A DNA stretch of 64,000 bases from assembly GCA_903861445.1 (NCBI GenBank), contig CAIOUK010000215.1, forward strand, positions 393-64,392, in the 5' to 3' direction. This DNA comes from an uncultured Verrucomicrobia subdivision 3 bacterium. GTDB taxonomy: Bacteria > Verrucomicrobiota > Verrucomicrobiia > Limisphaerales > UBA11358. A program made the position numbers and the translations under genes. Positions 964-18,185 of the stretch are shown here, piece after piece. Position 1 is the first letter of the stretch. Every line of letters begins with the position of its first letter. The notes beneath the pieces were generated by a model. The model saw only the letters and a program-made list of their open reading frames with translations, ran no database searches and was not told the DNA's origin.

Positions 964-969
964 ACGAAA

Positions 970-2334
970 TTATTCGTTTATAATAAACCCGCTATTCCGG
1001 AAACGCTGGAGCTTGTAGAGCAGCGTGCGGCGGCTGATGCCCAGGGCTTTGGCCGTTTCCGTGCGGTTGAAATGATGCTCTTTTAGGGCGGCCAAAATGG
1101 CATCTCGTTCGATGGCTTCGAGCTGCGGTGTTTCATTTATCGTCGCTGGCGGCTGGCTGATAGCAGTAGTTTGTAGACGAGTTGGCAGGTGTTCCGGCAA
1201 AATCACTTCGCTTCGCGAGACCAGCACGGCTCGTTCGATGACATTGCGCAGCTCGCGCACATTGCCCGGCCAGGCATAATTTTCCAGAATCGCCGTCGTC
1301 GCGGCAGAAAGTTGCGCGTTGCCGGGGGAAAATTCTTTCAGGAACAAATTGGCCAGCGGCAAAATATCTTCGCGCCGTTCGCGCAACGGCGGCACGTTCA
1401 ACTCCACGACATTCAGCCGGTAAAATAAATCTTCACGGAAACGGCCCGCCTTCACCTCGTCTTCGAGATTACGATTGCTGGCGGCGAGCACGCGGGCGTC
1501 GGTGTGGATTTCGCGATTCGAACCAACGCGCTGAAATTTTCCGTCCTGCGTCACCCGCAGCAGCCGCGCCTGTAGGGCAGGGGACATCTCGGCGATTTCA
1601 TCCAGAAAAATCGTGCCGCCCTTGGCCTCTTCAAAACGGCCGATGCGCTGCGCCGTCGCGCCGGTGAACGCGCCTTTTTCGTGCCCGAACAATTCGCTTT
1701 CCAGCAGCGTTTCGGGAATCGCCGCGCAGTTGACTTTGACGAGCGGCCCGTTGGCGCGCGCGCTCCAAGCATGGAGCAGGTCGGCCACTACTTCCTTGCC
1801 CACGCCGCTTTCGCCGGTGATGAACACACGCGTGTCGGACGCCGCGATGAGCGCGATGTCTTGAAACAAAGTTGTCATCAGCGGACTGTGCGCGGCGATG
1901 TGCGGCGGTAGTTTTTTCTCCGCGCCCAAATTCAACGGCGTGGTTGCCGCCAGCCCAGTGGCTTGCCGGACAGTGGCAAGCAATTCATCCAGATCAATCG
2001 GCTTGGCGAGATAGTTCAGCGCGCCGTCGCGCATCGCGCCCACGGCTTCGCGGATGTCGGCGTAGGCGGTGACGAGCAGGACGGGCAGCGTGAAATGCTG
2101 TTCGCGCAGCCGGCGCAACGTTTCCAGGCCGGACAGCCCGGTCATCCGCACGTCAGAAATCATCAGGGAAAATTTCTCCTTCGCCAGCAGCTCCAGCGCG
2201 CGTTCGCCGGAATCCGCCAGCGTGGTGACGAAGCTCTGGCTGCGCAGAAAGGAATCCAGCAGACTGCGCTGGCCGGCGTCATCATCCACGACGAGGATGC
2301 GCGGCGGTGCGGTTTTGCGTTCGTCCAAAGCCAT
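970..2334 (-). CDS. sigma54-dependent response regulator (NtrC/PilR-type enhancer-binding protein)
   Basis: REC domain (ILVVDDD...SDVRMTGLSG). AAA+ sigma54-interaction module with Walker A GESGVGKE and the GAFTGA loop. C-terminal Fis-type HTH (TAKALGISRRTLLYKL). Confidence 0.95.
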   Translation of the reverse strand: MALDERKTAPPRILVVDDDAGQRSLLDSFLRSQSFVTTLADSGERALELLAKEKFSLMISDVRMTGLSGLETLRRLREQHFTLPVLLVTAYADIREAVGAMRDGALNYLAKPIDLDELLATVRQATGLAATTPLNLGAEKKLPPHIAAHSPLMTTLFQDIALIAASDTRVFITGESGVGKEVVADLLHAWSARANGPLVKVNCAAIPETLLESELFGHEKGAFTGATAQRIGRFEEAKGGTIFLDEIAEMSPALQARLLRVTQDGKFQRVGSNREIHTDARVLAASNRNLEDEVKAGRFREDLFYRLNVVELNVPPLRERREDILPLANLFLKEFSPGNAQLSAATTAILENYAWPGNVRELRNVIERAVLVSRSEVILPEHLPTRLQTTAISQPPATINETPQLEAIERDAILAALKEHHFNRTETAKALGISRRTLLYKLQRFRNSGFIINE

Positions 2335-2364
2335 GCGGCAAATTAGCCGAAGCCCCGCGCCGCG

Positions 2365-3921
2365 TCACGCCGCGAGTTTGAGGTGGCTGATGCGGAAAAT
2401 CGCGCCGCGCGGCTCGTTCGGCAGGCACGCGATTTCCCAGCCGTGCAGCAAAACAATTTGCGAAACCACCGCGAGGCCGAGGCCGGTGCCTGTTTGGTTC
2501 GTCGTGAAATAGGGCTTGAAAATTTCCTGCCGTTTGTCCGCCAGCACGCCGGGGCCGTCGTCGCGGATTTCCAGAATCGCCTCCGTGGCGTTCGCGCGAC
2601 GCACTTCGATTTTTATCTGTCCGGCGGTGCCGACCGCGTGCGTGGCGTTGATGAGCAGGTTGAACAGCACTTGCCGCAATAATTGTTCATCGGCTTCAAC
2701 CGCCAGCGGTTCACCGCCGACTTCCACACGTAACTTTTTCTCCTCGATGTCGTAGCCGAGCGTGCGGACGATTTCCGAACAAGCCGCCGTGAGCGCCACC
2801 TTCGTGCGCCGGACTTCGCGCGGCTTGGAATAATTTATGAACTCAGTCAACTGCGCCGTCACCTTGTCGGTTTCGTCCACGATGATTTTTGATTTCTCGC
2901 GCACTTCCGTCGCCGCGTCCGGCAAACGGGCGATTAGCTGCGCCTGCCCGCGAATTAAATTGAGCGGATTGCGCGTTTCGTGCGCGAGACCGGCGGCGGC
3001 GAGGTTCATTTCCTTGAGGTGTGAATTGAGTTCGCTCGCGCGCACGAGGCGGATTTGCAATTCCGCCGTGCGCCGCACATTGCGCCACGCGAGGCCGACG
3101 CCGAGCGCGGAAATGCCGGCGAACAAAACAATGACAGCACGCAGCCACAGATCGCGCGTGCCGATAGCATGGAAATTTTCAGTGGACATCGCCAGCACGA
3201 GGCCGTGCAGCTCGCGCTTGGCGGCGAGCGTCTTGAACTCGGTGTCGGTCATTCCGCGCATCCACGGCGGGCGATGAGTGCCGCCATGCGGGTGTTCGCC
3301 GTCCGGCGGCGGCGCGGGCGCAGCGATTTCTCCGGCAGCATTGGTGGGCGGCGGTAAATTTGTCGGCGGCAATTCCGGCGCGTTGGTGTTCCAAGCGCCG
3401 CGGTCACGCCGGAAAAATTCCCGGCTGCGCTCGGTCCCATTGGTCAACAGGTTGCGAAAGGAAGGCAGCACGACGGTGGCGTTGTTGGTCTCGCCTTCAG
3501 GGGTGACGCTGGCGCCGGCCACCGGCAAAACGAAGGTCACGCCGCCGCCGGACCAGCGTTCGCGGTCGGCGAGCAGTTTGCGGGAAATCAGATTCGTGTC
3601 ACCGGCAATGACGACGGGATCGCCGTCGGTGTTCAGCAGGCCGATGGCGAGCAAGCCGCTGGTGCTGACAAAACTGTTGGTATGACTGCTGACAAGTTCG
3701 TTCAGGACGGGTTCGAGGCGATCCTGAAACAGCGCGCCGCGAAACCGCAGCGCGCGCGTGACGGCGCTTAAGGTGCTGGCGATTTCCCGCGAGCGGTTGC
3801 GGAGGTCGGACTTCGCGGCCTCGACCACGCGCAGATGTTCTTCCACCTGCCAGCCAACGACGAGCAGCCACGCGCCGGCAAGCAGGCCGAAGACCCAGCG
3901 GCGTTGGCGTTGCGTTTCCAT
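2365..3921 (-). CDS. sensor histidine kinase (two TM segments flanking a periplasmic-looking domain)
   Basis: N-terminal TM (VFGLLAGAWLLVVGW), a ~230 aa Pro-rich extracytoplasmic segment and a second TM (AVIVLFAGISALGVGLAW). H-box LAHETRNPLNLI and HATPase boxes NLLINATHA, DDGPGV, GTGLGLAV. Lies 30 nt upstream of the activator gene. Confidence 0.9.
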   Translation of the reverse strand: METQRQRRWVFGLLAGAWLLVVGWQVEEHLRVVEAAKSDLRNRSREIASTLSAVTRALRFRGALFQDRLEPVLNELVSSHTNSFVSTSGLLAIGLLNTDGDPVVIAGDTNLISRKLLADRERWSGGGVTFVLPVAGASVTPEGETNNATVVLPSFRNLLTNGTERSREFFRRDRGAWNTNAPELPPTNLPPPTNAAGEIAAPAPPPDGEHPHGGTHRPPWMRGMTDTEFKTLAAKRELHGLVLAMSTENFHAIGTRDLWLRAVIVLFAGISALGVGLAWRNVRRTAELQIRLVRASELNSHLKEMNLAAAGLAHETRNPLNLIRGQAQLIARLPDAATEVREKSKIIVDETDKVTAQLTEFINYSKPREVRRTKVALTAACSEIVRTLGYDIEEKKLRVEVGGEPLAVEADEQLLRQVLFNLLINATHAVGTAGQIKIEVRRANATEAILEIRDDGPGVLADKRQEIFKPYFTTNQTGTGLGLAVVSQIVLLHGWEIACLPNEPRGAIFRISHLKLAA

Positions 3922-3963
3922 TTTCGGTTTCAGTCTGGCGCGGTTTTGGTGAAAGACAATTTC

Positions 3964-5259
3964 CTAATTTTTCTTCACCGGCAGGCGGTCGAGGAAATGG
4001 TTTAGTTCCAGTTCAGGAATGGAATTGGTGATCATCTGCGACTGGCCGGTTTCGTGGCCGGACAAGGCAGCAAGCTGTTCCGGCGCGCGAACGATATGCG
4101 GCGTGAGAAAAATTAGCAGCTCGCTCTTCGTGCTCGACTTGGCGCTGAACTTAAACAACTGGCCAAGCAACGGGATGTCGCCGAGTAGCGGAATTTTACT
4201 GTCGTTGGACGATTTGTCGCTGCCGATGAGTCCGCCGATGACGACCGGCTGGCCGTCCGGCGTCACGACCACGGTGTTGGCGGAACGCTTGTTGATGTTG
4301 GGCGCATACACGGCGGAAGAAATCACGCTGCCGCCTTCAATCACCTGGCCGGGCGTCGAGTTGTCAATGGACGTGATTTGCGGCTGGAGAATCATTTGCA
4401 CCAGACTGTTCGCACCGATGAATGGTGTCACGTCCAGTTGGATGCCGACATTTTGATAACTGCCGTTGATGGTCGGCACCGTCGTGACGCTGTTGCCAAC
4501 GGTGGTGAAGCTGACGCCGCTCGGCAGATAAATGCTCTGGCCGACGACGATTTCCGCCTGCTGGCCGTCGCGCGCGAGGATGGACGGACGCGACAACACC
4601 TGCGCCTTGCCGGCGGTGGCGAGGGCCTGAATGGTTGCCGTGAAATCGTTGCCGGTAAGTTGCGCAAAACCGCCGGTGCCGGTCGCGCCCGCCAACGCCT
4701 GCGGCAGGCCAAAATTGTTGCCCGCGCTCACGCTGGAATAGACCGGCGTGATGCTGGAAGGCACAACTGCCGCCGTAGCCGTGCCTGGATTTGCAACCGA
4801 AAAATTTGTGGCATACCCGGAGAGCTGCGAAAAATTATTATTCAGCCCGGTGTAATTACCCTGCACGCCGATGGCGGATGCCTTGTTGTCCGTCACCTCG
4901 ACAAAGACCACCTTGATGAGCACCTGTGGCACGGGCGCGTCGAGGTTGGCGATGACGTTGCTGATCTGCTGGCTCGTCTCCTCGTCCGCGATGACGACGA
5001 GATTATGCGTCACTGGATCCACGGAAATGACCGCGTTGCCCACCGTGCCGTTGTTGTTGTATTGGCCGGAGGTGGTGCTGCTACTGCTGCTGCGACTGGA
5101 ACTACTCCCGCCGCCAAAGCCGCCAAACCCACCGAAGCCACCAAACCCGCCGCCGCCGAAACCGCTGCCGCCGCGTGACTGCGCGTGAACCATCAGCGCG
5201 GCACCCAGCCAGAGCGCCAGCACGACTCCGTAATTTTTATTGAAAAGTTTTGTCTTCAT
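3964..5259 (-). CDS. secretin, C-terminal half (own signal peptide, partial N3-type repeat, pore-forming secretin domain)
   Basis: GGAG sits 8 nt before ATG 5259. Signal peptide MKTKLFNKNYGVVLALWLGAALMVHAQ, then a G/F/S low-complexity stretch, then AVISVDPVTHNLVVIADEETSQQISNVIANLD (the beta-beta-alpha of an N-type repeat). The canonical secretin C-domain follows, ending SKIPLLGDIPLLGQLFKF...SELLIFLTPHIV. Confidence 0.85.
   Translation of the reverse strand: MKTKLFNKNYGVVLALWLGAALMVHAQSRGGSGFGGGGFGGFGGFGGFGGGSSSSRSSSSSTTSGQYNNNGTVGNAVISVDPVTHNLVVIADEETSQQISNVIANLDAPVPQVLIKVVFVEVTDNKASAIGVQGNYTGLNNNFSQLSGYATNFSVANPGTATAAVVPSSITPVYSSVSAGNNFGLPQALAGATGTGGFAQLTGNDFTATIQALATAGKAQVLSRPSILARDGQQAEIVVGQSIYLPSGVSFTTVGNSVTTVPTINGSYQNVGIQLDVTPFIGANSLVQMILQPQITSIDNSTPGQVIEGGSVISSAVYAPNINKRSANTVVVTPDGQPVVIGGLIGSDKSSNDSKIPLLGDIPLLGQLFKFSAKSSTKSELLIFLTPHIVRAPEQLAALSGHETGQSQMITNSIPELELNHFLDRLPVKKN
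5107..5172 (-). repeat. GFG-type coding microsatellite (GGSGFGGGGFGGFGGFGGFGGG) at the mature N-terminus of the secretin C-half
   Basis: Plus strand reads ccgccaaagccgccaaacccaccgaagccaccaaacccgccgccgccgaaaccgct, reiterated 9-nt GFG units. A poly-Ser run follows (SSSSRSSSSSTTS). Confidence 0.7.
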
Positions 5260-5286
5260 ATTTTTTTCTCCGGTTGAATGGCCAAA

Positions 5287-6663
5287 TTAAAATTGCGGGC
5301 TGCCACCGTTGCGGCCGCTGCCGCCAATACTCGACGTGCCTGAACTCGTGGTTGTGCCGGTGGCCGTGGTGTTGTTCTGCGCGCGCTGCATCAACGCGCT
5401 GTTCTGCGACGAACTGCTGCCGCTGCTGCGTGAGCCGCTGGTCTGGAACATATTTTGCAGCACCTGTGCCGCCTGCTGCGGGTCGCCGTTGTTCATGTGG
5501 AACACATAAACTTTCTGGTCGCGCGTCGAAGGCACGTCGAGATCGGTCATCATATCCGCGATCTGCTCCATCAATTCCTTTGGCGCGGTCACGATGACCG
5601 CCTGAATGCGCGCATCCGCCACCGCGTTCACCTGCGTCGCTTTTTTGACGCGGTCGCTGGAAGAACTGCCGCCTGACGTTCCGCCCGCCGCCCCGCTCAT
5701 CATCCGTGAAAAGAAACTGCTTCGCCCGCCGCCTTCGCCGCCGCGAAAGCTGATGGGCGACTGCGCGCCGCCGCCGGAACCACCGCCGCTCGGAAACACG
5801 CTTTCGATTTCCGCCGCCACGTCCGTCGGACTGGCGTGCTTGAGCCGGAACACGCGGATTTCCGTCTCCGCCTCCGCGCTGTCGTCAATCGCTTTGATGA
5901 TTTCCGTGAGGTGCCGGATGTTCGCCTGCGTGTCAGTGATGACCACCGAGTTGCCCGCCTCGTTCGCCACGACCGTCGCCTGCGGCGAGACAAACGACGT
6001 CAGATCCGAAACCAGTTGCCGCGCCTCGACAAAGCGGATGGGAATGATCTGCGTCACAATTTCCGCGTTGTTCGGAATATCTTCCGGATTGTTGCCGCTC
6101 TTCACCGGAATATTGCGCGTCTTTGCGTCGTTTTTGTCCACGATGGTCAGCGTGCGGCCGTTGCGGATGGCCGCGTAGCCATTTTTATTCAACACGGCGT
6201 TCAGCAGATTAACCGCTTCGTCGCGCGTCAGGTGTTTGCCGACAACGGACACAGAGCCGTTGACGCGCGTGTCTTGCACGATGACGAACCCCGCCGCGTC
6301 GCTCAAGTAATTCAACACCATTTCCAGCGGCGCATTGCGAAAGTTCAAATCCAAATCATTGCCGTTCGTGCCCGTTGCCTGTGCGGGCGGAACAAAAGTT
6401 GCGCCGACGGCCGGCGCGACAGCGGATTTGCCGCTCGCCGGCAAAATCACCATCGGCCCGGCATTGGTTGAAGTGGGCACCGCTGCGGTTGGCGGAGTTT
6501 GATTACTGCCTGTTTCCGGAAGCGATCCGTCATCCGAGTCAGCAGCCTCGGCGCGCGGTGGCGGTGGCGGATTGTTATCCGTCGGTGGATTTTCTTGGGC
6601 GGTGGCGGCGACCAGCCAGCCCGCAACGCCCAATGCAAATAAGCTTAAGCTTGTGTTTTTCAT
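5287..6663 (-). CDS. secretin, N-terminal half (signal peptide, N0-like domain, two NolW/N1-N2-like repeats, first part of an N3 repeat)
   Basis: Signal peptide MKNTSLSLFALGVAGWLVAATAQ. N0-like LDLNFRNAPLEMVLNYLSDAAGFVIV...RTLTIV. Repeats IIPIRFVEARQLVSDL...VVITDTQANIRHLTEIIKAID and IRVFRLKHASPTDVAAEIESVF...AVIVTAPKELMEQIADMMTDLD. Then VYVFHMNNGDPQQAAQVLQNMF, an S/G/T-rich tail and TAA. Confidence 0.85.
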   Translation of the reverse strand: MKNTSLSLFALGVAGWLVAATAQENPPTDNNPPPPPRAEAADSDDGSLPETGSNQTPPTAAVPTSTNAGPMVILPASGKSAVAPAVGATFVPPAQATGTNGNDLDLNFRNAPLEMVLNYLSDAAGFVIVQDTRVNGSVSVVGKHLTRDEAVNLLNAVLNKNGYAAIRNGRTLTIVDKNDAKTRNIPVKSGNNPEDIPNNAEIVTQIIPIRFVEARQLVSDLTSFVSPQATVVANEAGNSVVITDTQANIRHLTEIIKAIDDSAEAETEIRVFRLKHASPTDVAAEIESVFPSGGGSGGGAQSPISFRGGEGGGRSSFFSRMMSGAAGGTSGGSSSSDRVKKATQVNAVADARIQAVIVTAPKELMEQIADMMTDLDVPSTRDQKVYVFHMNNGDPQQAAQVLQNMFQTSGSRSSGSSSSQNSALMQRAQNNTTATGTTTSSGTSSIGGSGRNGGSPQF

Positions 6664-7268
6664 TGTAATTCCTTTGCTTTTTTTTCCATCAGTCGTTTCA
6701 AAACATCATTCTGCCCCAGCGCCGACGAAGGTGCCGCCACTGGAATTTCCGTGCCGGATGTGCCGCCGGCGACGGGCGCGTTCACACTGGTGCTGGCGGA
6801 GATTTCGTCCGCACCCGCCCATTCCCACTTGCCGTTTTCCTGACGCACCACGTCGCCGACTTTTAATGTCAGCTTGTCGGCCTGATTCGTAGTCTCCAGC
6901 GTCACGCCGCCCGGAGTGATTTTCGTCACCGTGTAACCCGCAATTTTCTGTGCGACGGGCAAAACCTGTTTCAACTCATCACGGTTACCGCTGAAAAAAG
7001 CGAACAACCCTTTTTGATAATTCATCGTGCCGACAAAAGTGAAAGCCGGCGCCGCCGCCGAAACATGTGTGTGCGTCACGCGCGTCCGCGTCCGCGTCGA
7101 GACATAATGCGGCTGGCGATTCGGATCAAAAATATTCCGGTCCGTGACGAACCGGCTGAACGCCGCATAATCCGTCGCGCCGGGAACCCCATTGTTCGTC
7201 TGCGCGAACGCATCACTGACGCCAGCCAACGCGAGTGCCAAAATGATTTTTGCGGGTAGCGGTTTCAT
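6660..7268 (-). CDS. PilP/GspC-like periplasmic secretin-interacting protein
   Basis: Signal peptide MKPLPAKIILALALAGVSDAFAQ and an RNIFDP motif (compare RDPF in PilP/GspC). A small beta domain follows: FTFVGTMNYQKGLFAFFSG...IAGYTVTKITPGGVTLE. 4-nt overlaps with both neighbours. The family assignment is by motif and position only. Confidence 0.55.
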   Translation of the reverse strand: MKPLPAKIILALALAGVSDAFAQTNNGVPGATDYAAFSRFVTDRNIFDPNRQPHYVSTRTRTRVTHTHVSAAAPAFTFVGTMNYQKGLFAFFSGNRDELKQVLPVAQKIAGYTVTKITPGGVTLETTNQADKLTLKVGDVVRQENGKWEWAGADEISASTSVNAPVAGGTSGTEIPVAAPSSALGQNDVLKRLMEKKAKELQ

Positions 7269-7837
7269 TTTTTATCCGGCGGCAGCAGCGCCAGCCCGTT
7301 GATTTCAGTGCTCAAAGTCATTTGCTGACCTTCCTTGTCGCGCGCCGTGAGTTCCAGCGAATCCAGCCGCAGCGCGAGCGGCCCGCGCTCCAGATCGTAA
7401 AGAAACTGGCTCAACGTGCCGAGGGTGCCCGATGTTTCCACACGGCACGTCAGCGTCATATAATTGGTGGACTCATTTTTCCATTGCGGCATCAGGCTCG
7501 TCACTTCCGCGCCGCTGCTGCGCGACCAGCCGTCCACCGCCGTCAGCAATTTTTGCTCCGCGAGCGAGGTGTTCGCCGGCAGCGCATTCACCGTCATGTC
7601 CCGCCAGCGGCTGCGGATGCTGGCTTCACGCTGGAGCAGCCGGTTGCCGTCGGTCACCTTGGTTCGCAAATCCTTGACCTGCGCCTGCCGCGCCGACCAC
7701 CAGCCGCCGAGCGGTGCGAGGACAAAATCTACGCCCACCAGCAACGCAAGCGCTGCGGCGGTCAGCACCACGAGAAATTCCTGACGATTCTTAATTTTCA
7801 CTGCCGCCTCCGTTGTTAAAGTTGAAGCCAAATACAA
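7265..7837 (-). CDS. PilO/GspM-like bitopic inner-membrane assembly protein
   Basis: Single TM (FLVVLTAAALALLVGVDFVLAPL), a coiled-coil-like segment and a ~100 aa periplasmic domain. It sits after the PilM-PilN fusion. An alternative GTG start at 7801 (VKIKNRQEF) would reduce the 47-nt overlap to 11 nt. Confidence 0.55.
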   Translation of the reverse strand: MYLASTLTTEAAVKIKNRQEFLVVLTAAALALLVGVDFVLAPLGGWWSARQAQVKDLRTKVTDGNRLLQREASIRSRWRDMTVNALPANTSLAEQKLLTAVDGWSRSSGAEVTSLMPQWKNESTNYMTLTCRVETSGTLGTLSQFLYDLERGPLALRLDSLELTARDKEGQQMTLSTEINGLALLPPDKK

Positions 7838-9248: not shown

Positions 9249-10612
9249 TGCGTGTTGTTCGCCACCAAACTTTCCCGCGCTTTTTCGCCCAGCGCCCAGC
9301 CAAGCCGGCTCAAGTCCTGACGATATAAGATTTTGGGCGTGCCGTCGCTGACATCGAAAATAAATTTTACCCTCCGGTAGCCGCGCCCGAACGGCCCGAC
9401 CGCCGCGATGTCCGCTGTGAACTGATAGCTGTGCGTGGTCAGCCAGTCGCCCTTCGCCAGCGCTGTGACTACCGGGCTGTTGTTGCCGAGCGCGTCAATG
9501 ACCCAGGCGATGGAGTTGAGATTGTTTGAATTTTGCTGGCGATAGGAAACCAGCGTCTGCGCCGCGCTAATGGCGGTTTGTTCGTCAATGTTCGCGCCCA
9601 TGAACATCGCCGTCAGCACGTCGGAGTTGGCGGTGTTGACGTTCACGCGGTTGCGGATGTAGGTATTGGTTTTTGTCGTCACCCCATTGGCGATGGCGGC
9701 AAAATCATCCGAGCTCAATCCCTGATTTTTGCAGAACAGCGCGAAATCCAGAAGGCCGTTGAAATTTTGCCCCCGTCCGTTTTTCGGATGCAGCCGGTTG
9801 TTGATGGCGGTCCACAACTGGTTTTCGCGGCTGGTGCCGAGATTCTGGAACAGCGATTTGATTTGACCTTCTTTCGCCGTGTTCACATTGGTCAGCGAAG
9901 AGCCGTCGGCATGAAAATTCGGTTCGCGCGTATAGACCGTCACATCTCCGAACAGGCCGGAATCCAGCTCGCCATTGCCGTTGACATCTTTTTCATTGGC
10001 GTCCAGCACGCCGTTGCGGTTCAGATCCTCGCCGGCCAACATATCTTCCGTTGCGCCATAGACGAGTCGCAGTTCGTCCACCGTTTCGAACGGCGCATTT
10101 TTTGCCACATAGCCGAGCGAATTGTAGTCGAGCGACACCACTCCGTTCGTGCCGCGCCAATCCATGATCGCTTCGGCAAAATCGGACGTGATGTTCGGCA
10201 GATACTGGAAAACATTAGTGCTGACATTATTTAAATTCAATTTGCCGCCCTCATCCACCAATCCAAAATACGGCTCGGTGGAATTACCTTCGTTCGGATC
10301 GCGGCCGATAAGCCAAAATTTCGCGTCGCCCACCGGCACGGCCTCGCACTTGAACTGTGAGCTGTCCGGCACCACGCCGTTGGTGGCGTAATTTTGCAGC
10401 ACGAGGCCGACATAGCGCGCCGCGCCCTCGATGGCCTGGTCCGCCGCGACGCCGCTCGCGCGGTTGTCGGCGGCGCGCAGTTCGTAAGTCATCGTGTTTG
10501 CAAAATACAGCGCGATGCTGACAAGGCCGAGGCACACCCACAACACGATTACCAGCACCGACGCGTGTTCGCGCCGGGCGGCAAATCGTTTTGGTTGGAG
10601 CGGCAATTTCAT
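9245..10612 (-). CDS. gspK: GspK-like minor pseudopilin
   Basis: Basic N-terminus plus hydrophobic helix without Glu5 (RREHASVLVIVLWVCLGLVSIALYF). Large globular body with an Asp/Asn-rich Ca-binding-like run (DLNRNGVLDANEKDVNGNGELD) and VNVNTANSDVLTAM. It sits after the G/H/I/J-type genes. Confidence 0.75.
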   Translation of the reverse strand: MKLPLQPKRFAARREHASVLVIVLWVCLGLVSIALYFANTMTYELRAADNRASGVAADQAIEGAARYVGLVLQNYATNGVVPDSSQFKCEAVPVGDAKFWLIGRDPNEGNSTEPYFGLVDEGGKLNLNNVSTNVFQYLPNITSDFAEAIMDWRGTNGVVSLDYNSLGYVAKNAPFETVDELRLVYGATEDMLAGEDLNRNGVLDANEKDVNGNGELDSGLFGDVTVYTREPNFHADGSSLTNVNTAKEGQIKSLFQNLGTSRENQLWTAINNRLHPKNGRGQNFNGLLDFALFCKNQGLSSDDFAAIANGVTTKTNTYIRNRVNVNTANSDVLTAMFMGANIDEQTAISAAQTLVSYRQQNSNNLNSIAWVIDALGNNSPVVTALAKGDWLTTHSYQFTADIAAVGPFGRGYRRVKFIFDVSDGTPKILYRQDLSRLGWALGEKARESLVANNTQ

Positions 10613-10614
10613 TT

Positions 10615-11397
10615 TTAATTTCCCGTCGCGCTGAACAGAACCATGTTCGTCCGTGTCACAGAATCAATCGGCACCACCAGTTGAATCGGCTGCGCCGTCC
10701 GGTTCGCGCCGGCCAGTTGGATTTCCACGCGCACGGCCAGCGGCAGATTCGTGTTCACCGTGGTCGGGTCGGTCGTGTCCCAGACTTCCTGCCATTGTGT
10801 GCCGTCGAAACAGGAAAATTTCACGCTTGCCACGCCGCTCAACAGGAGCTGGTTATCCACAAATGGCGTCGTGGTGGACAACAAATTTCTCAAGACGCTG
10901 CGATACAAATCACGCTGGCCGGAAACCGCGGTGGAATTTTTCAACTCATAGGTCACGCGCTGGATGTCCGCCCACGGCGCGTTCGCGCCCAACGCGCCGG
11001 TCGCCGTGAAAATCTCCGCCACCGCCGGCTCGCTGACGCCGGTGCTGGTGATGCCGGTGCTGGTGATGCCGGTGCCGACGCGGAAGCTGCCGGAGAGAAA
11101 TTTACTCGTGCCGTTGGTGGGCGTGACGACGCATTGCAAATCGCGGCGTAAAAACGTGAAGGCCTGATCCACCGGCGTCGCGGTGTCCACCACGTTGGTC
11201 GTCACCTCGCGCAGGCGCAGCGCGCTGAACAGCACGGCGCTGACCGCGACCAGCACGATGGCCGCCACGCCGATGGCGAGAATCATCTCGACCAGCGTGA
11301 AGGCACATTTCGAACGGCGAATGGCAAATGGCGAATCCGCCGCCACGCCGAGCGCGGCAGCCATTCGTAATTCGTAATTCGTAATTCGTAATTTCAT
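10615..11397 (-). CDS. GspJ-like minor pseudopilin (prepilin-type N-terminal methylation motif)
   Basis: Motif AFTLVEMILAIGVAAIVLVAV. ATG 11397 overlaps the upstream stop as ATGA. An alternative ATG at 11364 would leave the heptamer tract as a 30-nt spacer. The longer ORF in the track (start 11523) overlaps the upstream gene and is not favoured. Confidence 0.7.
   Translation of the reverse strand: MKLRITNYELRMAAALGVAADSPFAIRRSKCAFTLVEMILAIGVAAIVLVAVSAVLFSALRLREVTTNVVDTATPVDQAFTFLRRDLQCVVTPTNGTSKFLSGSFRVGTGITSTGITSTGVSEPAVAEIFTATGALGANAPWADIQRVTYELKNSTAVSGQRDLYRSVLRNLLSTTTPFVDNQLLLSGVASVKFSCFDGTQWQEVWDTTDPTTVNTNLPLAVRVEIQLAGANRTAQPIQLVVPIDSVTRTNMVLFSATGN
11363..11397. repeat. heptanucleotide tandem repeat: attcgta x4 plus one degenerate unit
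   Basis: Plus strand reads attcgtaattcgtaattcgtaattcgtaatttcat. On the coding strand it would encode KLRITNYELR of the prepilin leader if ATG 11397 is used. Confidence 0.95.
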
Positions 11398-11804
11398 TGC
11401 GTCATGTTCAAAGTTGTCGCGCCCGGCAGACTCGCCAGCGTGTCCAGCTTCACCGAATAATCTTTGCCCTGTGCGGAAAATTTCACTTCCGCCGTCACCA
11501 GTTGCATTGCGTCCTGCGGCCACGACTGGCTCGTGAGCGTCCAGCTAAAATTCTGTGCGCCCTCGCTTGTCGTGCCGCTCTGCGTGCCGTTGTTCCAGTT
11601 CGTCAGCACCAAACTCTCGTTCAAAATCCGGTCGGCCACGCGCACCGCCGCGCCCTTGCGCGCCGCGACCTCGCCCGCGAGGCTGGCGACGTGCATGGCT
11701 TCGATCGCCACCGGCACGACGATGGCCAGAAACAACAGCGCCACCATGACCTCGACCAGCGTGAAGGCGGGTGGACGCCTATTTTTCGCGGTCGTTAATC
11801 TCAT
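11394..11804 (-). CDS. GspI-like minor pseudopilin
   Basis: MRLTTAKNRRPPA/FTLVEVMVALLFLAIVVPVAI prepilin motif. The 136 aa size is typical of GspI. It lies between the H-like and J-like genes. Confidence 0.7.
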   Translation of the reverse strand: MRLTTAKNRRPPAFTLVEVMVALLFLAIVVPVAIEAMHVASLAGEVAARKGAAVRVADRILNESLVLTNWNNGTQSGTTSEGAQNFSWTLTSQSWPQDAMQLVTAEVKFSAQGKDYSVKLDTLASLPGATTLNMTQ

Positions 11805-12336
11805 AACCCTGATGGTTGTCCGTTTCTGCCAGCCAGCGGGAAAACCCCGCGCTGTCTGTCAATTTTAACTGCTGCGGGCTGCCTTCATCCACCGCGCCGT
11901 CCGGCAGAAATCGGATGGCCGGCAGATTTCTGAAAGACGTCGCCGTTCCGCTGCCGGTTTTCACCACGGTAAATTTCAAGGTCGGATCCACCGTCAAATT
12001 TTCCGCCTTCGCGTCGCCGTTCTGGCCGCTGGTTTCGGCTTCCGCGCCATACTGGCCGGTTTTTTCATCCAGCCAAAAAATCATCGGCATTCCTTCCGAC
12101 ACCGCGCGGCTTTGCGTGGTGTGTATGAGCGCCAGCATCCGCCGCGCCTCGGAATCCAACGCGCGGCCCTGAATGAAACCGGATATGCGCGGCACCACCA
12201 AGGCGGTCATAACCACCAGTAACGCCAGCACCAAAATCAATTCAATGAGCGTGAAGGCGGAGGCGGATTTCGCGTTGCAAATTTCAAATGACAAATGGCG
12301 ACCGGTCGTTCGCGCTGCCGGCATTCGCAATTTCAT
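11779..12336 (-). CDS. GspH-like minor pseudopilin
   Basis: ATG 12336 lies 2 nt after the gspG stop. Motif SASA/FTLIELILVLALLVVMTALVVPRISGFIQGRALDSEARRML. The ORF-track start at 12462 would overlap gspG and is not favoured. Confidence 0.7.
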   Translation of the reverse strand: MKLRMPAARTTGRHLSFEICNAKSASAFTLIELILVLALLVVMTALVVPRISGFIQGRALDSEARRMLALIHTTQSRAVSEGMPMIFWLDEKTGQYGAEAETSGQNGDAKAENLTVDPTLKFTVVKTGSGTATSFRNLPAIRFLPDGAVDEGSPQQLKLTDSAGFSRWLAETDNHQGYEINDREK

Positions 12337-12338
12337 TT

Positions 12339-12794
12339 TTATTTTGCCCAACTGACAATATCGTCGTCCGTGCCTTCCTTGCCGTCCGGGCCGACGGACA
12401 GCAGGTCGTAGGAACCGGGCGTGTGTTTGCCGGGAAAAGTGTATATGTAAGGATGATGCCACTGGTCCACCGGCAGGCTTTCCAGATACGGCCCGTGCCA
12501 GTCCCGCGCGTTGCTGGGGGGCGTGACCAAATCCTGTAGGCTCTTGGGATACGAACCCATGTCCACTTCATATTGGCCGAGTGCCGACTTGATGCCGCCG
12601 TTGATGTCGGTTGTGGTCGCCGTAATCCGGGCGCGTTCGCTGGAGCCGGCGATCCGGGGAATGACCAGCGCGGCCAGAATGCCGATGATGACCACCACCA
12701 GCAGAATTTCCACAAGGGTGAACGCGCGGCGCAACCGGGATGATTTGGGAACAAGTTTTTTGATTTCGATTTTCATAAACAGTTTGGTTTTCAT
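12339..12794 (-). CDS. gspG: major pseudopilin GspG
   Basis: ATG 12794 overlaps the gspF stop as ATGA. Motif RRA/FTLVEILLVVVIIGILAALVIP. The C-terminal T2SS_G signature DWHGPYLESLPVDQWHHPYIYTFPG...YDLLSVGPDGKEGTDDDIVSW is present. Confidence 0.9.
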   Translation of the reverse strand: MKTKLFMKIEIKKLVPKSSRLRRAFTLVEILLVVVIIGILAALVIPRIAGSSERARITATTTDINGGIKSALGQYEVDMGSYPKSLQDLVTPPSNARDWHGPYLESLPVDQWHHPYIYTFPGKHTPGSYDLLSVGPDGKEGTDDDIVSWAK

Positions 12795-14035
12795 TTGATG
12801 TTTTGGCTCATAGTCAGCACCGGCAGCAGCATGCCGATGAAAATAGTGCCGATGAAACCGGCGATCAGGAACAACATCAGCGGTTCGGCCAGCGCAACGG
12901 CGGTTTTCAAGTTGCGGTCCAAATCGGCCTCCGTGACGACGGCCACCCGGACCAGTTCGGCGTCGAGCTTGCCGCTTTCCTCGGCGACGGAAATCATTTC
13001 CAGCACCGAACCGGAAAAGAGCGCCTTGCAATCGGCCAGGCTCTGGCCGAGCCGTCCGCCCTGCTGCACGCGTTCAATGGCCTGCGCCACGGCATCCACG
13101 AGAATCTGATTGCCAATCGAGCGGCGCGCCACGTTCAAGCCCTGCACCAGCGGCACGCCTGCGCCGATCAAGGTGCCGAGCATCCGGCAGAAACGGGCCA
13201 TGGCAAATTGCGCGATGAGCGGGCCGGCGAGCGGCGTTTTCAAAATTATTCCCTCCCAGACGCGCCGGCCTTTTTCCGAGACCAGCCAGGCGCGCACGAG
13301 AAAAAGTGCCACGACCAGCGCGGCGGCGACGAACAAACCATACGCCCGGATCAAATCGCTTGCGCCGATGATGATTTTCGTGAGCAACGGCAGCGAACCG
13401 TGGATGCTGTTGAACAGGTTCCGCAGCATCGGAATAAAAAAAGTCAGCAGCGCGACGAGCACGCCCACGGCCAGCACCAGCAGGATGCAAGGATACAGCA
13501 TGGCCTGCATCACCTTTGATTTCAGGTCTTTCTCGCGCGCTTGAAATTCCGCGATCTGCGCCAGCACCACGTCCAGAAATCCGCCCGCCTCGCCCGCTTC
13601 GACCATCGCGACATAGACGCGCGGAAAAGTTTCCGGCGATTTCGCCATCGCATTCGCCAGCGACATGCCATCTACCACGAGGTCGTGAATTTGTTTCCAC
13701 TGCGCTTTTGACGCCGGCGACGACGCTTCTTTCTGTAAAATCACCAGCGCGCGGCTCAACGGCACGCCCGCCGCCAGCAGACTGGAAAGCAGCCGGGTAA
13801 AATTTTCTAGTTCCTTCGCGGAAACTTTTTTGGACGCGAAATCGAAAGTGATATTCCCCAATGACGACGGAGCAGCGGAACCTTTTTTGCCGGCGGAATT
13901 TTTCTCCAACAAGTTTACCGGACGCAAGCCGAGCGTTTCCATCTGCCGCAGCGCGTCGGGGCGACCGGCGGCGTCCAACACGCCCACGGCCATTTTGCCG
14001 TCGCGCTGCAAGGCTTTGTAGGCAAAAGTAGGCAT
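12791..14035 (-). CDS. gspF: type II secretion inner-membrane platform protein GspF
   Basis: 414 aa with two T2SSF-type repeats and three TM segments. Characteristic stretches are FTRLLSSLLAAGVPLSRAL and FCRMLGTLIGAGVPLVQGL. Confidence 0.95.
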   Translation of the reverse strand: MPTFAYKALQRDGKMAVGVLDAAGRPDALRQMETLGLRPVNLLEKNSAGKKGSAAPSSLGNITFDFASKKVSAKELENFTRLLSSLLAAGVPLSRALVILQKEASSPASKAQWKQIHDLVVDGMSLANAMAKSPETFPRVYVAMVEAGEAGGFLDVVLAQIAEFQAREKDLKSKVMQAMLYPCILLVLAVGVLVALLTFFIPMLRNLFNSIHGSLPLLTKIIIGASDLIRAYGLFVAAALVVALFLVRAWLVSEKGRRVWEGIILKTPLAGPLIAQFAMARFCRMLGTLIGAGVPLVQGLNVARRSIGNQILVDAVAQAIERVQQGGRLGQSLADCKALFSGSVLEMISVAEESGKLDAELVRVAVVTEADLDRNLKTAVALAEPLMLFLIAGFIGTIFIGMLLPVLTMSQNIK

Positions 14036-14041
14036 GAAAAA

Positions 14042-15766
14042 TTAGCGCGCCACCGCGATGCTCGCGGTGGAATCACCGACCTGGTTTTTTGTCGCGGTCT
14101 CGACTTCCTTCGCCGTGGTGACGCTCAACACTTCTTCCACCGTCGTGACGCCGGCGGCGACCAAACGCCAGCCGTCCTCGGCGAGTGTGCGCATTCCGGC
14201 TTTGCGCGCGGCGGCGCGGATTTGATCCGTCGAGGCGCTTTTCAAAATGAGCTGGCGGATTTCCTCGTCGGTGTTCATCCACTCAAAAATCGCGTGGCGG
14301 CCAAAGAAACCGGTATTGCGGCACTCGCGGCAGCCGACGGATTTGAAAATGGTTTTGTCCGCCGCGATGCCGAGCTTGGCTTTGAAAGATTGCGCCCGCA
14401 CGGAATTATCCGGCTGTTTGCAATGCTTGCAAAGCACGCGCACGAGCCGTTGCGCCAGCACGGCTTCGAGCGACGAGGCGACGAGATACGGCTCGACGCC
14501 CATGTCCACCAGCCGCGTCAGTGCGCCGGGCGCGTCGTTGGTGTGCAACGTGGAAAAAACCAGGTGACCGGTGAGCGACGCCTGCACCGCGATTTGCGCG
14601 GTTTCGGCGTCGCGGATTTCGCCGATGAGAATCACGTCGGGATCGTGGCGCAAAATCGAGCGCAAGCCGCGCGCGAACGTCAGGCCGGATTTTTCGTTGA
14701 CCTGAATCTGGTTGACGCCTTTGAGCTGATATTCCACCGGATCTTCGACCGTGATGATTTTTCGGACGGCGTCGTTGATTTCGTTGAGCGCCGTGTAAAG
14801 CGTGGAAGTTTTGCCGGAGCCGGTCGGGCCGGTGACTAAAATAATTCCGTGCGGCAAACCGAGAACGTGCTGAAAATGTTCCAACTCGCGCTGGTTCATG
14901 CCGATTTCGCCAAGGCCGCGCAGCGTGGAGTTCTGCCGCAGCAGGCGCATCACGACCGCTTCGCCGTGCAGCATCGGGATGATGGAAACGCGAATGTCCA
15001 CCTCGGCCTGATCAATGCGGACCTTGATGCGACCATCCTGTGGCAGGCGTTTTTCCGCGATGTTGAGGTGGCTCAAGATCTTGATGCGCGAAACGATGGC
15101 CGGCTGAAATTGCTTCAATTGCGGCGGCACGGCCGTGTCCTGCAATTCCCCGTCTATGCGGTAGCGGATTTTGAATTCGTCCTCAAATGGCTCCAGATGA
15201 ATATCCGACGCGCGCAGCTCGATGGCGTCTTTCAACACCTGGTTGACGAAACGGATGATGGACGCCTCGTCCTCTTCGCCGGAATCGAGGTCGGTGTTCT
15301 CGGCGTTTTCGTCAACGACCTGGATGGATTTTTCCTCGTCGAGGGTGCCGATGGTGTCGGCGCCGACGCCGAGGCGCTTTTTGATTTCGCGCTGGATGGC
15401 TTCGCTCGTAGAGAGAATCGGTTTGAGGTTCAAGCCGGTCAAAGTTTTCAGCGCGTCAAAACCTTGCGTGGCAAACAGGCGGCTCGTCGCGACTTCGACG
15501 GAACCGTTGGTGCGCTGGAGCGGAAGCAATTCTTCCTTCAGTAAAATGCGCGCGGGAAAAAGGGAGAGAAGCTGACGATCCGGCTCGACGTCTTCGAGCG
15601 TCGTGTAGCCGAGGCCGTATTCGGTCGCAAGCCAGCGGAGAATTTCTTCCTCGCTGGACAAATTCAGTTTCGCGAGCGCGGTGGCATCCAGCGCAGACAG
15701 TTGCCGGGACGCGACCATGCGTTCCAGCAACCCCTTTGATGAATCTTGAACCGTGGTGGCGGCCAT
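14042..15766 (-). CDS. gspE: type II secretion ATPase GspE
   Basis: N-terminal T2SSE_N/MshEN-like domain. Walker A GPTGSGKTST, Asp box, Walker B VILIGEIRD, His box TGHLVFSTLHTN, and a tetracysteine Zn motif CKHC...CRECRNTG. Confidence 0.95.
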   Translation of the reverse strand: MAATTVQDSSKGLLERMVASRQLSALDATALAKLNLSSEEEILRWLATEYGLGYTTLEDVEPDRQLLSLFPARILLKEELLPLQRTNGSVEVATSRLFATQGFDALKTLTGLNLKPILSTSEAIQREIKKRLGVGADTIGTLDEEKSIQVVDENAENTDLDSGEEDEASIIRFVNQVLKDAIELRASDIHLEPFEDEFKIRYRIDGELQDTAVPPQLKQFQPAIVSRIKILSHLNIAEKRLPQDGRIKVRIDQAEVDIRVSIIPMLHGEAVVMRLLRQNSTLRGLGEIGMNQRELEHFQHVLGLPHGIILVTGPTGSGKTSTLYTALNEINDAVRKIITVEDPVEYQLKGVNQIQVNEKSGLTFARGLRSILRHDPDVILIGEIRDAETAQIAVQASLTGHLVFSTLHTNDAPGALTRLVDMGVEPYLVASSLEAVLAQRLVRVLCKHCKQPDNSVRAQSFKAKLGIAADKTIFKSVGCRECRNTGFFGRHAIFEWMNTDEEIRQLILKSASTDQIRAAARKAGMRTLAEDGWRLVAAGVTTVEEVLSVTTAKEVETATKNQVGDSTASIAVAR

Positions 15767-15793
15767 GAATCGTCAGCTTTCGTCTCGGAATTA

Positions 15794-16378
15794 TTAGTTC
15801 ACCAGACCAAGCAGATAAGCCTGCGCTTCCTGTTTCGTCGTGAGCACAGCCTTGAGGTCGGCCTGCGCCGCTTCAAGCTTGGCCTGTTTGACTTTCTGCG
15901 CAGCCTTGTATTTGGCGAGCAAATCCTTGATCTGCGCCGCCGGAGCGTTGTCGTCAATCGCCTTTTGCAAAGCTTCCTGTTCAGGGCTGGCCTGGCCAAA
16001 CATGCTGGTGCGCGAACGATTCCGGTTGCCGGTCTGATCGCCAGCGGCACTATTAGTGGCGCCACGGTTGCGACCGCCGGTAAACATCCGTCCCATGGTG
16101 CCGCTGCTCACCGCGATACGAGCGTCCATGACTTTCTGCACCAGCGGTTTCACGGCGCTCCACTCGGTGTCGTTGGTGAAGCCGAGTTGTTCCTGCACGC
16201 GTTCCATCATGCGTTGTTGCATCTGGGCGGGATCAAAATTTCCGCCGCCGCGTTGGCGGTTCTGACCATTTTGACCACCGCCGTCGTTATTATTGTTGTC
16301 CTGCGCGAGTCCGCTGCTGACGTTGACGACGAGCGTGATGGCCACGGCGCAGCCGGTGATGATACGATTTAGTTTCAT
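15794..16378 (-). CDS. secreted helical protein with an LTxxQ motif (Spy/CpxP-like, tentative); first gene of the secretion block
   Basis: Signal peptide MKLNRIITGCAVAITLVVNVSSGLAQ, an N/G/Q-rich linker, then helical segments and LTTKQEAQ near the C-terminus. It lies 27 nt upstream of gspE on the same strand. Confidence 0.45.
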   Translation of the reverse strand: MKLNRIITGCAVAITLVVNVSSGLAQDNNNNDGGGQNGQNRQRGGGNFDPAQMQQRMMERVQEQLGFTNDTEWSAVKPLVQKVMDARIAVSSGTMGRMFTGGRNRGATNSAAGDQTGNRNRSRTSMFGQASPEQEALQKAIDDNAPAAQIKDLLAKYKAAQKVKQAKLEAAQADLKAVLTTKQEAQAYLLGLVN

Positions 16379-16457
16379 GTCAATTTTTCTTATGATTTTT
16401 TATAGCGTTGATTCCATGGCGGCACCTTTGCGTGACGGTCATGGCCCGACCCACTTA

Positions 16458-16473
16458 CGCAAGGAACATGCCA
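16458..16473 (-). promoter_or_regulatory. sigma54 (-24/-12) promoter candidate
   Basis: The minus strand reads TGGCATGTTCCTTGCG, against consensus TGGCAC-N5-TTGC(A/T), with exact GG-to-GC spacing. It ends 80 nt upstream of ATG 16378. Confidence 0.65.
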
Positions 16474-16514
16474 GCTTAAAAAGCGCCTATATTTGATAAA
16501 ACCGAAATACCGCC

Positions 16515-16529
16515 GCGCAATCCTTGCTC
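16515..16529. promoter_or_regulatory. dyad GCGCA-N5-TGCTC (9/10), candidate enhancer-binding-protein site
   Basis: gcgcaatccttgctc. The centre is about 75 bp upstream of the transcription start implied by the sigma54 element, and 33 bp from the second dyad. Confidence 0.35.
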
Positions 16530-16547
16530 AATTTGCCAATGTTGACC

Positions 16548-16562
16548 GCGCACTATTTGCGC
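16548..16562. promoter_or_regulatory. perfect dyad GCGCA-N5-TGCGC, candidate enhancer-binding-protein site
   Basis: gcgcactatttgcgc. The centre is about 108 bp upstream of the implied sigma54 transcription start, the usual distance for NtrC-type upstream activator sites. Confidence 0.4.
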
Positions 16563-16808
16563 ACACATGTGGCTGGGTCTGATGTTCTCTGGAATGGTAA
16601 AATGCAGCACCCGGCCAGCCAAAAAAGAGGGCTTTCGGTTTGTTATGCTGGTGGAACTCAATCAGACCATCAACACTTGGGGAGAAGAGCATATCATGCG
16701 CGTGGACACCCAATTAAAACCCTGCCTCGCACAACAGGGTAGCTTGCCGACAAGACGAACAAGAATTGACGAAGGAAAAACAAGATTCGTCTGGCATAAA
16801 GCCGCCGG

Positions 16809-17156: not shown

Positions 17157-17317
17157 TTTTTCTCCGCTGAAGCCTGTGGTGTGCCTTGCGCCGATGCGCT
17201 AGGTGTGATTTCAATTTCACCGCCACTTCAGCTCCCAAAAACTTCCGTTGTCCTGCGCGCCGTGAGGTTTCACGTCCGCGCCTGTCCGAAAGAAAAAATT
17301 CAATCGCAAGAAATTTT

Positions 17318-18181: not shown

Positions 18182-18185
18182 TTTT

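Follow-up and report, generated by a model that had tools for sequence, protein, structure and literature searches.

How an uncultured bacterium of Verrucomicrobia subdivision 3 decides when to build its type II secretion system (T2SS) is the question raised by the stretch of DNA considered here, 64,000 nucleotides of GenBank assembly GCA_903861445.1 (contig CAIOUK010000215.1, positions 393 to 64,392; hereafter the window, whose own numbering is used below). Between 16378 and 970 its minus strand carries a T2SS operon that begins with a gene for a secreted protein, p194, and ends with genes for a sensor histidine kinase and an NtrC-family regulator. A preliminary description of this DNA had placed a sigma-54 promoter and two phased dyads in front of the operon and suggested that the whole forms a self-contained, signal-controlled and possibly autoregulated unit. 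The cis elements and their geometry, their conservation among relatives, the genes that make up the operon and how closely they are packed, and the domains of its kinase and regulator can all be read directly from the DNA, and together they make it likely that a sigma-54 promoter with tandem upstream activating sequences (UAS) controls the T2SS operon, at the end of which kinase and regulator are encoded.

The promoter lies on the minus strand at 16473-16458 and reads TGGCAT-GTTCC-TTGCG (TGGCATGTTCCTTGCG). Its GG doublet (16472/16471, the -24 element) and its GC doublet (16460/16459, the -12 element) are exactly 10 bp apart, in keeping with the TGGCAC-N5-TTGCW consensus, and the motif is intergenic, is oriented with the operon and precedes the ATG of the first gene (16378) by 80 nt. 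The preliminary description, which had reported a minus-strand motif with correct -24/-12 spacing, was thus accurate on this point. Transcription from sigma-54 promoters starts some 12 nt downstream of the GC doublet, and from this geometry a start is predicted at 16447 on the minus strand, 12 nt downstream of the C of that doublet, with a predicted leader of 69 nt. Upstream of the promoter lie two dyads that can be read on either strand. The distal one, GCGCA-AATAG-TGCGC (GCGCAAATAGTGCGC, 16548-16562), is perfect and is centred on 16555, at about -108, while the proximal one, GAGCA-AGGAT-TGCGC on the operon strand (GAGCAAGGATTGCGC, 16515-16529; GCGCA-N5-TGCTC on the plus strand), has one mismatch and is centred on 16522, at about -75. 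Everything the preliminary description had said about the sequences of these dyads, with centres 33 bp apart at about -75 and -108, proved correct, and their arrangement is that of NtrC-type UAS, which are usually found in tandem, about 70-150 bp upstream of the start and roughly on one helical face.

Sequence statistics alone are unconvincing, because single motifs of either type are no rarer than chance in 64 kb. A loose sigma-54 pattern has six matches in the window (7.7 expected), the strict -24/-12 pattern two (1.2 expected), and dyads with at most one mismatch occur 14 times (11.8 expected). The composite module, in which two dyads and a -24/-12 element share the same geometry, has a single match in the window, and 100 shuffles gave no match at all. 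Two other sigma-54-like matches, neither of which has dyads or is conserved, can be put down to chance. The first (TGGCATCATCCTTACA, 12446-12461, minus strand) was rejected, as it has a mismatch in the -12 element, is coding (WHHPYI, within the 3' end of gspG) and is matched by the strict pattern in none of the loci, while the second (TGGCACCGACGCTGC, 56486-56500, minus strand), a strict match, is antisense within a long plus-strand open reading frame (ORF) and is at chance level, 1.2 such matches being expected. A third dyad with one mismatch (GAGCATATCATGCGC, 16687-16701, plus strand), about 221 bp upstream of TGGCA, was also rejected as part of the enhancer, since it is not conserved in relatives.

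The decisive evidence is comparative. Nineteen orthologous loci (L001-L019), all from metagenome-assembled genomes of Verrucomicrobia subdivision 3 / Limisphaerales, were collected with the poorly conserved GspL-like protein encoded in the middle of the operon as query (66-82% identity), and their selection was therefore blind to the promoter. From p194 to the kinase, all 19 have their genes in the same order. Twelve of them include the upstream region. The comparison of the dyads covered 13 orthologous upstream regions, and the upstream alignment (A1) has a mean column identity of 50%. When about 330 kb in these 19 loci was scanned on both strands for the strict pattern TGGCAYN5YTGC, each of the 12 loci with an upstream region proved to have a single copy, 88-102 nt before the start of p194, and there was no further copy on either strand of the 19 loci. 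TGGCA and TGC are unchanged across loci despite variation of the 5-nt spacer between them (GTTCC, ATTCC, ATCTC, GATCC, GTATA, ATATA, ACGCC, AATCC or GCCGT).

The dyads are equally constrained. In the distal dyad the cores GCA and TGC are the same in all 13 regions, around a 5-nt spacer that varies, and the centre of this dyad is at -79 to -84 from the T of TGGCA (-91 in L014 and L017). The proximal dyad is kept in 12 of the 13, centred at -49 to -52 (-61 in the same two loci), and in 11 of the 12 orthologous loci the GCA/TGC dyad cores are found at fixed positions. The invariant columns of A1 are the distal GCA and TGC cores, the proximal GC and T, TGGCA, TGC and the start codon. L014 and L017 also share an upstream opposite-strand ORF of 414 aa that by eye is putatively phenylacetate-CoA-ligase-like. 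Between enhancer and promoter there is a spacer rich in A/T tracts (GGTATTTCGGTTTTATCAAATATAGGCGCTTTTTAAGC, 16474-16514, minus strand), a candidate bend or integration host factor (IHF)-like region of which a GATTnnnTGG/AAA segment is semi-conserved in A1. A proper IHF site was rejected, however, since TATCAAATATAGG fits WATCAA but not TTR and relatives have no consistent match.

A wider view came from a metagenome scan with the composite module as pattern, in which dyad spacings of 25-37 bp were permitted. At least 120 stretches matched, at least about 85 of which directly precede p194 followed by gspE (and gspF), with identities to p194 down to 27-70%. In a dyad-anchored count, both GCA cores and the distal TGC are present in 100% and the proximal TGC in 92-100%, and positions left free by the pattern are conserved as well in the metagenome regions (e.g. 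the terminal GC of each dyad). GAGCA, the half-site found in the window, is the commonest proximal left half-site among 71 metagenome loci; the mismatch in the proximal site as given in the preliminary description is therefore real, but it is the norm of the family rather than a defect. In 84 distinct upstream regions in which the geometry was measured, the proximal dyad is almost always 49-52 bp from TGGCA, and dyad centres are 29-34 bp apart with a bimodal distribution (29/30 and 32/33), so that the spacing of 33 bp, or three helical turns, holds for the window but not as a fixed rule. Upstream neighbour genes vary from locus to locus, and those of the window, CusBA-like and small Cys-rich, are found in none of the compared loci, as is also true of the IclR-type gene at the other end of the operon. 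As neighbours change while the module stays, it is to be assigned to the secretion operon rather than to the divergent genes. Phylogenetic footprinting thus strongly supports the view that the promoter and its two NtrC-type dyads drive the secretion operon.

Which protein would bind the dyads is suggested by the other end of the operon, which the preliminary description had correctly assigned to a histidine kinase and a GAFTGA-containing activator; their domains and coordinates were verified. The regulator (970-2334, minus strand) consists of a receiver, an AAA+ domain and a Fis-type helix-turn-helix (HTH, residues about 400-454) (Pfam Response_reg, 9.9e-28; Sigma54_activat, 8.4e-69; AAA_lid_14; HTH_8, 6.3e-15), with a Walker A motif GESGVGKE at 174, GAFTGA at 221 and receiver residues DDD...SDVRM, which makes it a group I enhancer-binding protein (EBP). 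The kinase (2365-3921, minus strand) has Pfam HisKA and HATPase_c domains and an H-box HETRNPL at 314. It is predicted to be a membrane sensor with one clear transmembrane segment (257-280) and, by eye, an N-terminal hydrophobic segment (9-25), between which a region of about 230 aa would be periplasmic. The best NCBIfam models all score far below their cut-offs, whether for the regulator (AtoC, 468 against 714 bits; ZraR, 426 against 760; NtrC, 419.6 against 558.6) or for the kinase (ZraS, 163 against 479 bits; AtoS, 155 against 646), and the kinase also falls outside the T2SS_HK subfamily (NF038348, 60.6 against 450 bits). The pair is nearest to ZraSR, AtoSC and NtrBC, is a member of none, and belongs to a branch of the NtrC family that has no name of its own.

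The two genes are not equally faithful to the operon. Each of the 14 loci long enough to include this end of the cluster has the kinase as its last conserved gene. The regulator gene directly follows the kinase in the window and in four other loci (L004, L007, L010 and L142), comes after an inserted opposite-strand gene in L008, lies upstream of the operon in L014 and is absent from the fetched flanks of eight (L001-L003, L005, L011, L015, L017 and L018). It is thus adjacent in only about one-third of loci and otherwise is an orphan gene located elsewhere. The operon is self-contained, as the preliminary description had proposed, in the window but not across the family, in which the regulator is often unlinked. 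Regulator orthologues with 70-88% identity are nevertheless abundant throughout the clade, and those that are unlinked, found in five further contexts, are orphans with no kinase beside them. The simplest explanation for a kinase without a partner in last place in the T2SS operon, and for a regulator without a partner at some other site, is that the two form one pair. Kinase and regulator would accordingly be partners in phosphotransfer. The regulator encoded in the operon probably binds the dyads.

A scenario for how the operon might be switched on can be assembled from these elements. RNA polymerase containing sigma-54 would wait as a closed complex on TGGCAT-N5-TTGC (16473-16459) until a signal from the periplasm or the envelope is sensed by the membrane kinase and passed on by phosphorylation of the NtrC-type regulator. 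Regulator dimers would then fill both dyads, which being about three helical turns apart are roughly on the same face of the DNA, form an AAA+ ring and loop over the A/T-rich spacer to contact sigma-54, so that the GAFTGA loops could open the promoter at the expense of ATP. The transcript would run from about 16447 through p194, gspEFGHIJK, the L-like, M and C-like genes and both secretin halves. In this genome it would most likely read through into the kinase and regulator genes, creating positive feedback as in glnA-ntrBC, and the basal levels of these two proteins would presumably come from weak internal promoters.

Continuity of the transcript is favoured by the packing of the operon. Fifteen co-directional minus-strand genes, counted from Pfam and NCBIfam scans and a choice of start codons, replace the 16 of the preliminary description, and they are separated by gaps of -26 to +42 nt, five of which are 4-nt overlaps; that no gap exceeds 42 nt and that such overlaps are numerous had been correctly noted. 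No terminator was found between 3964 and 3921, the place singled out in the preliminary description as one where a strong internal terminator would matter, as there is neither a hairpin nor a T-run. The regulator gene is followed by the convergent IclR-type gene.

The most serious alternative concerns precisely these last two genes. The sigma-54 transcript might serve mainly p194 and the secretion genes, with kinase and regulator expressed from weak constitutive promoters of their own and little or no autoregulation, which we consider unlikely on balance but worth keeping in mind. The spacer before the kinase (3922-3963, minus strand), which holds no terminator-like site on the minus strand, contains two boxes, AAATTGTCTTTC and CCAGACTG. 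In 14 loci this spacer is 42-48 nt long, with conserved boxes AAATTGyCTTTTC and CCAGACTG, the latter about 10 nt before the ATG, and it is open to speculation that they act as a weak promoter within the operon or as a signal for translation. Unlinked regulator genes (loci compared: L014, L140, L141, L142 and L145) are similarly preceded by a two-box motif, TTTTGRC-N16-TAGnYTG, which ends a few nucleotides before the start codon and may be the regulator's own promoter. Since most relatives carry this gene at an unrelated position in the chromosome, the regulator must be expressible alone, and in the window (2335-2364, minus strand) and in L004 the downstream box persists (TAATTTG and TAATCTG, respectively). 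The upstream box is gone in both, however, because the 3' end of the kinase gene occupies that part, and conserved boxes could equally well be translation-initiation signals. Moreover, neither the secretin-kinase junction (42 nt) nor the kinase-regulator junction (30 nt) has a terminator or a large gap, for which reason read-through is the default expectation.

It is also conceivable, although doubtful, that the dyads serve another sigma-54 activator encoded elsewhere, while the regulator of the operon controls other genes. The dyads are indeed conserved in loci with no regulator gene in the fetched flanks (L001-L003, L011, L016 and L017), and similar modules precede unrelated genes, which means that the dyad motif is not unique to the secretion system. 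Among the matches listed in the metagenome scan, modules were found upstream of genes for Metal_resist (ZraP/CnrX-type) periplasmic proteins (L022 and L095) and of Usp genes located beside a kinase and an NtrC-type regulator (L066, L088, L108 and L130), this regulator being about 40% identical to that of the window. Two more (L063, 1248-1352, and L087, 2976-3080), with GCGCA-N5-TGCGC, GAGCA-N5-TGC and TGGCACGGCCCTTGC, precede a stand-alone secretin-N gene outside any T2SS operon, whose product of 474 aa has N0 and Secretin_N domains and is 36-37% identical to the N-terminal half of the window secretin. In these two loci the gene is followed by an aldolase-like ORF and two Hsp20-like ORFs, as judged by eye from their N-termini. 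Some matches before other genes may be due to chance. The Metal_resist and Usp modules make it plausible that the GCGCA-N5-TGCGC dyad type is common to a larger group of NtrC-family regulators, and a regulator of this type may have the stand-alone secretin-N gene as another target. The case for a foreign activator is nonetheless countered by the fact that regulator orthologues 70-88% identical are found clade-wide and lack a kinase when unlinked, that the T2SS operon always ends in a kinase otherwise without partner, that the regulator, wherever it is linked, is linked to the T2SS operon (directly in the window, L004, L007, L010 and L142, upstream in L014) and that the loci show no second sigma-54 promoter on which it could act.

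A third possibility, that the motifs are due to chance or are operators for the divergent CusBA-like metal-efflux genes that start at 16809, drew on the frequency of the single patterns, which match shuffles, on their location in a 430-bp divergent intergenic region beside a CusB/CusA-like operon and on the third dyad being nearer to the divergent gene, but it is effectively refuted by the comparative data, since the composite module is absent from all 100 shuffles and keeps its distance to p194 in 12 of 12 loci, all of them without CusBA-like neighbours, while the third dyad is not conserved.

Control of the whole operon by the sigma-54 promoter and its tandem UAS remains the preferred reading, against which a number of points must nevertheless be set. 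The dyads persist in about two-thirds of related loci without an adjacent regulator, for which reason linkage cannot prove that regulator and dyads belong together. Conversely, in L004 the proximal dyad is degenerate, yet the regulator is adjacent. The bimodal dyad spacing implies that helical phasing is only approximate, and many textbook enhancers lie farther from their promoter than -75. If the boxes before kinase and regulator are separate promoters, as they may be, the case for autoregulation would be weakened, and the transcription start, the read-through into these two genes and the resulting feedback are in any case predictions from DNA sequence. Finally, a six-frame search found no RpoN box in the window or in the 142 loci fetched in total (0.97 Mb). 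The gene rpoN is presumably present in this genome, for which the GAFTGA activator encoded by the operon and the sigma-54 regulons reported for Verrucomicrobiota of the class Opitutia (PMC12316311) give indirect support.

What the promoter would control is a T2SS, since GspD, GspE, GspF, GspG and the minor pseudopilins H-I-J-K are encoded in one cluster (all minus strand). The secretion ATPase GspE (14042-15766) matches Pfam T2SSE (8.9e-139) and MshEN, with 607 bits for TIGR02533 against a cut-off of 630, and is followed by the platform protein GspF (12791-14035; T2SSF, 5.9e-55). The major pseudopilin GspG (12339-12794; T2SSG, 5.3e-26), for which the ATG at 12794 was chosen as start, giving a 4-nt overlap with gspF, and the minor pseudopilins GspH (11779-12336; GspH, 1.9e-6), GspI (11394-11804; T2SSI, 1.8e-4) and GspJ (10615-11397; T2SSJ, 2e-12) all have N_methyl domains, the starts of GspH and GspJ also having been chosen; GspK (9245-10612) has T2SSK, T2SSK_1st and HHH_3 domains. 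The assembly platform is less easily recognized. A GspM/PilO-like protein (7265-7801) is matched by PilO (2.1e-5) and T2SSM_b (3.5e-5), whereas the GspL-like (PilM/PilN-like) assembly protein (7791-9248) and p202 (6660-7268), a possible GspC-like protein with a signal peptide, have weak matches only: TIGR01709 gspL (1.2e-3) and PilN (0.015) for the former, in a conserved synteny, and NF041515 GspC_delta (1.6e-3, 18 bits against a cut-off of 150), its sole match, for the latter. There is no prepilin peptidase (peptidase A24, GspO) in the operon, and one is found about 7 kb downstream in L142.

The secretin is encoded by two genes. The N-terminal half (5287-6663) has a signal peptide, N0 and Secretin_N repeats (Pfam type_II_gspD_N0 and Secretin_N; TIGR02517 positions 1-297) and an S/G-rich tail, while the C-terminal half (3964-5259) has a signal peptide of its own, a G/S-rich region and the pore domain (Pfam Secretin, 1.9e-46; TIGR02517 positions 281-600). 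This split is kept in every related locus (L001-L019 and L142) and is therefore not a frameshift artefact; a literature search on split secretins found nothing relevant. The split secretin and the conserved first gene may be the more original features of the locus.

That first gene, p194 (15794-16378), which opens the operon in all loci, encodes a protein that is secreted and mostly helical, with linkers that are disordered and rich in G, N and Q. Towards its C-terminus is an LTTKQ motif, conserved among orthologues as LTTKQEAQA. It has no match among Pfam (E-values up to 10), NCBIfam or PDB-sequence profiles. Some orthologues are labelled 'Spy/CpxP family protein refolding chaperone' by JGI, which is a lead only, and membership of the Spy/CpxP/ZraP group (LTXXQ, PF07813; Metal_resist, PF13801) was rejected, every sequence and fold test being non-significant. 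One of 44 orthologues matched Metal_resist in a Pfam scan (E = 0.065), hhalign comparisons with two Metal_resist proteins from other contigs gave probabilities below 4%, and a helical AlphaFold2 model had in Foldseek searches of PDB a best E-value of 1.4, with weak TM-scores of 0.5-0.57 to 5io8 and CnrXs (3zg1).

Nevertheless, the split secretin, the features of p194 and the ZraS/ZraR-like affinities of the two-component proteins leave room for a bolder interpretation, in which the operon is an envelope-surveillance circuit in the style of ZraPSR or Cpx, built around a secretion machine. We hold this to be rather improbable. If it were so, p194 may work in the periplasm on the terminal kinase, either as its adaptor or as an inhibitor that provides feedback, and the kinase may itself monitor the assembly state or load of the two-polypeptide secretin rather than an external nutrient signal. 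Kinase and regulator may then be conserved and complementary 'orphans', wired together though usually unlinked, and the same regulator may also drive the stand-alone secretin-N genes of L063 and L087.

The predicted leader of p194 folds, as a single sequence, into a 5' hairpin (16414-16444, minus strand; +4 to +34) followed by an unstructured A/C-rich stretch up to the ATG. A hairpin at +3 to +9 opens each of the 13 predicted leaders, with differing sequences and z-scores of -1.0 to -3.7, and in the A/C-rich stretch behind it there is no obvious Shine-Dalgarno sequence. RNAalifold found no consensus pairs in a MAFFT alignment of the leaders, and Rfam has no match in window positions 1-17500.

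On the other side of the intergenic region, the plus strand carries a divergent metal-efflux-like unit (16809-21434), for which a sigma-70-like site at 16670-16697 (plus strand) may be the promoter. Its first gene (16809-17156) codes for a small Cys-rich protein that is secreted (...DCGCGGKMSCC...), the next (17186-18181) for a CusB/HlyD-like protein that has a heavy-metal-binding domain and the last (18147-21434) for a resistance-nodulation-division pump of the AcrB/CusA type. Further along, some 28 ORFs on the same strand (about 21900-54000) have N-termini that look like those of a putative polysaccharide/glycosyltransferase-type cluster.

The significance of these findings lies less in the mechanism than in the machine and the organisms concerned. 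The secretion machine appears to be inducible rather than constitutive. The locus is a defined regulatory unit, consisting of a promoter, two activator sites, a kinase and a regulator, that has been kept across a clade of Verrucomicrobia that is abundant in soil, peat and fresh water and for the most part uncultured, in a phylum noted for polymer degradation and presumably reliant on secreted enzymes. The module thus offers a handle, through a reporter fusion or a phosphomimetic regulator, on the inducing signal and the secreted cargo. Direct evidence at the level of cis elements for control of T2SS by sigma-54 is scarce, other cases being genome-wide promoter predictions, and a literature search on sigma-54 or T2SS in Verrucomicrobia subdivision 3 found nothing relevant. 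In Plesiomonas shigelloides, the T2SS-2 cluster was found by RNA-seq in 2022 to be RpoN-dependent, in what its authors described as the first report linking RpoN and T2SS (PMC9743648), although promoter, activator and sites were left undefined. A survey based on position-specific scoring matrices predicted sigma-54 promoters at T2SS clusters of orthologous groups mainly in Myxococcia and less in Polyangia and Planctomycetia (PMC12316311). Neither report covers Verrucomicrobia subdivision 3.

Control of the cell exterior by sigma-54 is otherwise well established for pili, type III secretion systems (T3SS) and type VI secretion systems (T6SS) (PMC3162934; PMC8855297). A parallel is offered by VasH/Sfa2 in T6SS and HrpR/HrpS in T3SS, where an EBP encoded in the cluster activates the sigma-54 promoters of that cluster (PMC3162934; PMC8855297), but these activators have no receiver domain or partner kinase, whereas a phosphorelay and a T2SS are combined here. 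The preliminary description had drawn an analogy with PilS-PilR, which in Pseudomonas, Myxococcus and Geobacter likewise links an NtrC-family two-component system and sigma-54, through upstream sites, to a machine of the type IV filament superfamily. PilR drives the major pilin gene alone, with pilSR off that transcript, and PilS, a kinase with six membrane helices, detects pilin within the membrane. In the window, by contrast, the promoter precedes the genes of the whole machine (ATPase, platform, pseudopilins and secretin), the kinase has one clear membrane helix and an N-terminal hydrophobic segment instead of six helices, and there is no sigma-54 promoter before gspG. The analogy therefore holds for the kind of system involved, but it is looser than those with glnA-ntrBC and ZraPSR, which are closer architectural precedents.

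ZraPSR of Escherichia coli depends on sigma-54 and controls its own expression, and the first of its targets is a secreted protein that is small and helical. Together with AtoSC it provides the best-scoring NCBIfam models for the kinase and regulator, and the same type of dyad is found before Metal_resist genes among the matches listed. The differences are that scores are far below the equivalog cut-offs and that 12 secretion genes lie here between p194 and the two-component genes. There is also an architectural likeness to glnA-ntrB-ntrC of enteric bacteria, where the glnAp2 promoter is also a sigma-54 promoter with two tandem dyads about three turns apart, served by a REC-AAA+-Fis-HTH activator, and where kinase and regulator genes at the 3' end of the activated operon provide positive feedback. 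The glnAp2 dyads are at -140 and -108, and the NtrC site is GCACC-N5-GGTGC, a 15-bp dyad with 5-nt half-sites and a 5-nt spacer like those of the window, although with GCACC in place of GCGCA. Apart from this, the window sites are closer to the promoter (-108 and -75), nitrogen assimilation is replaced by secretion, and NtrB is cytoplasmic whereas the window kinase is predicted to be a membrane sensor with a large periplasmic region. The regulatory design is thus a familiar one, a well-defined case of textbook NtrC-type activation rather than a new principle, and it is for this reason that its value lies in annotation and in the design of experiments.

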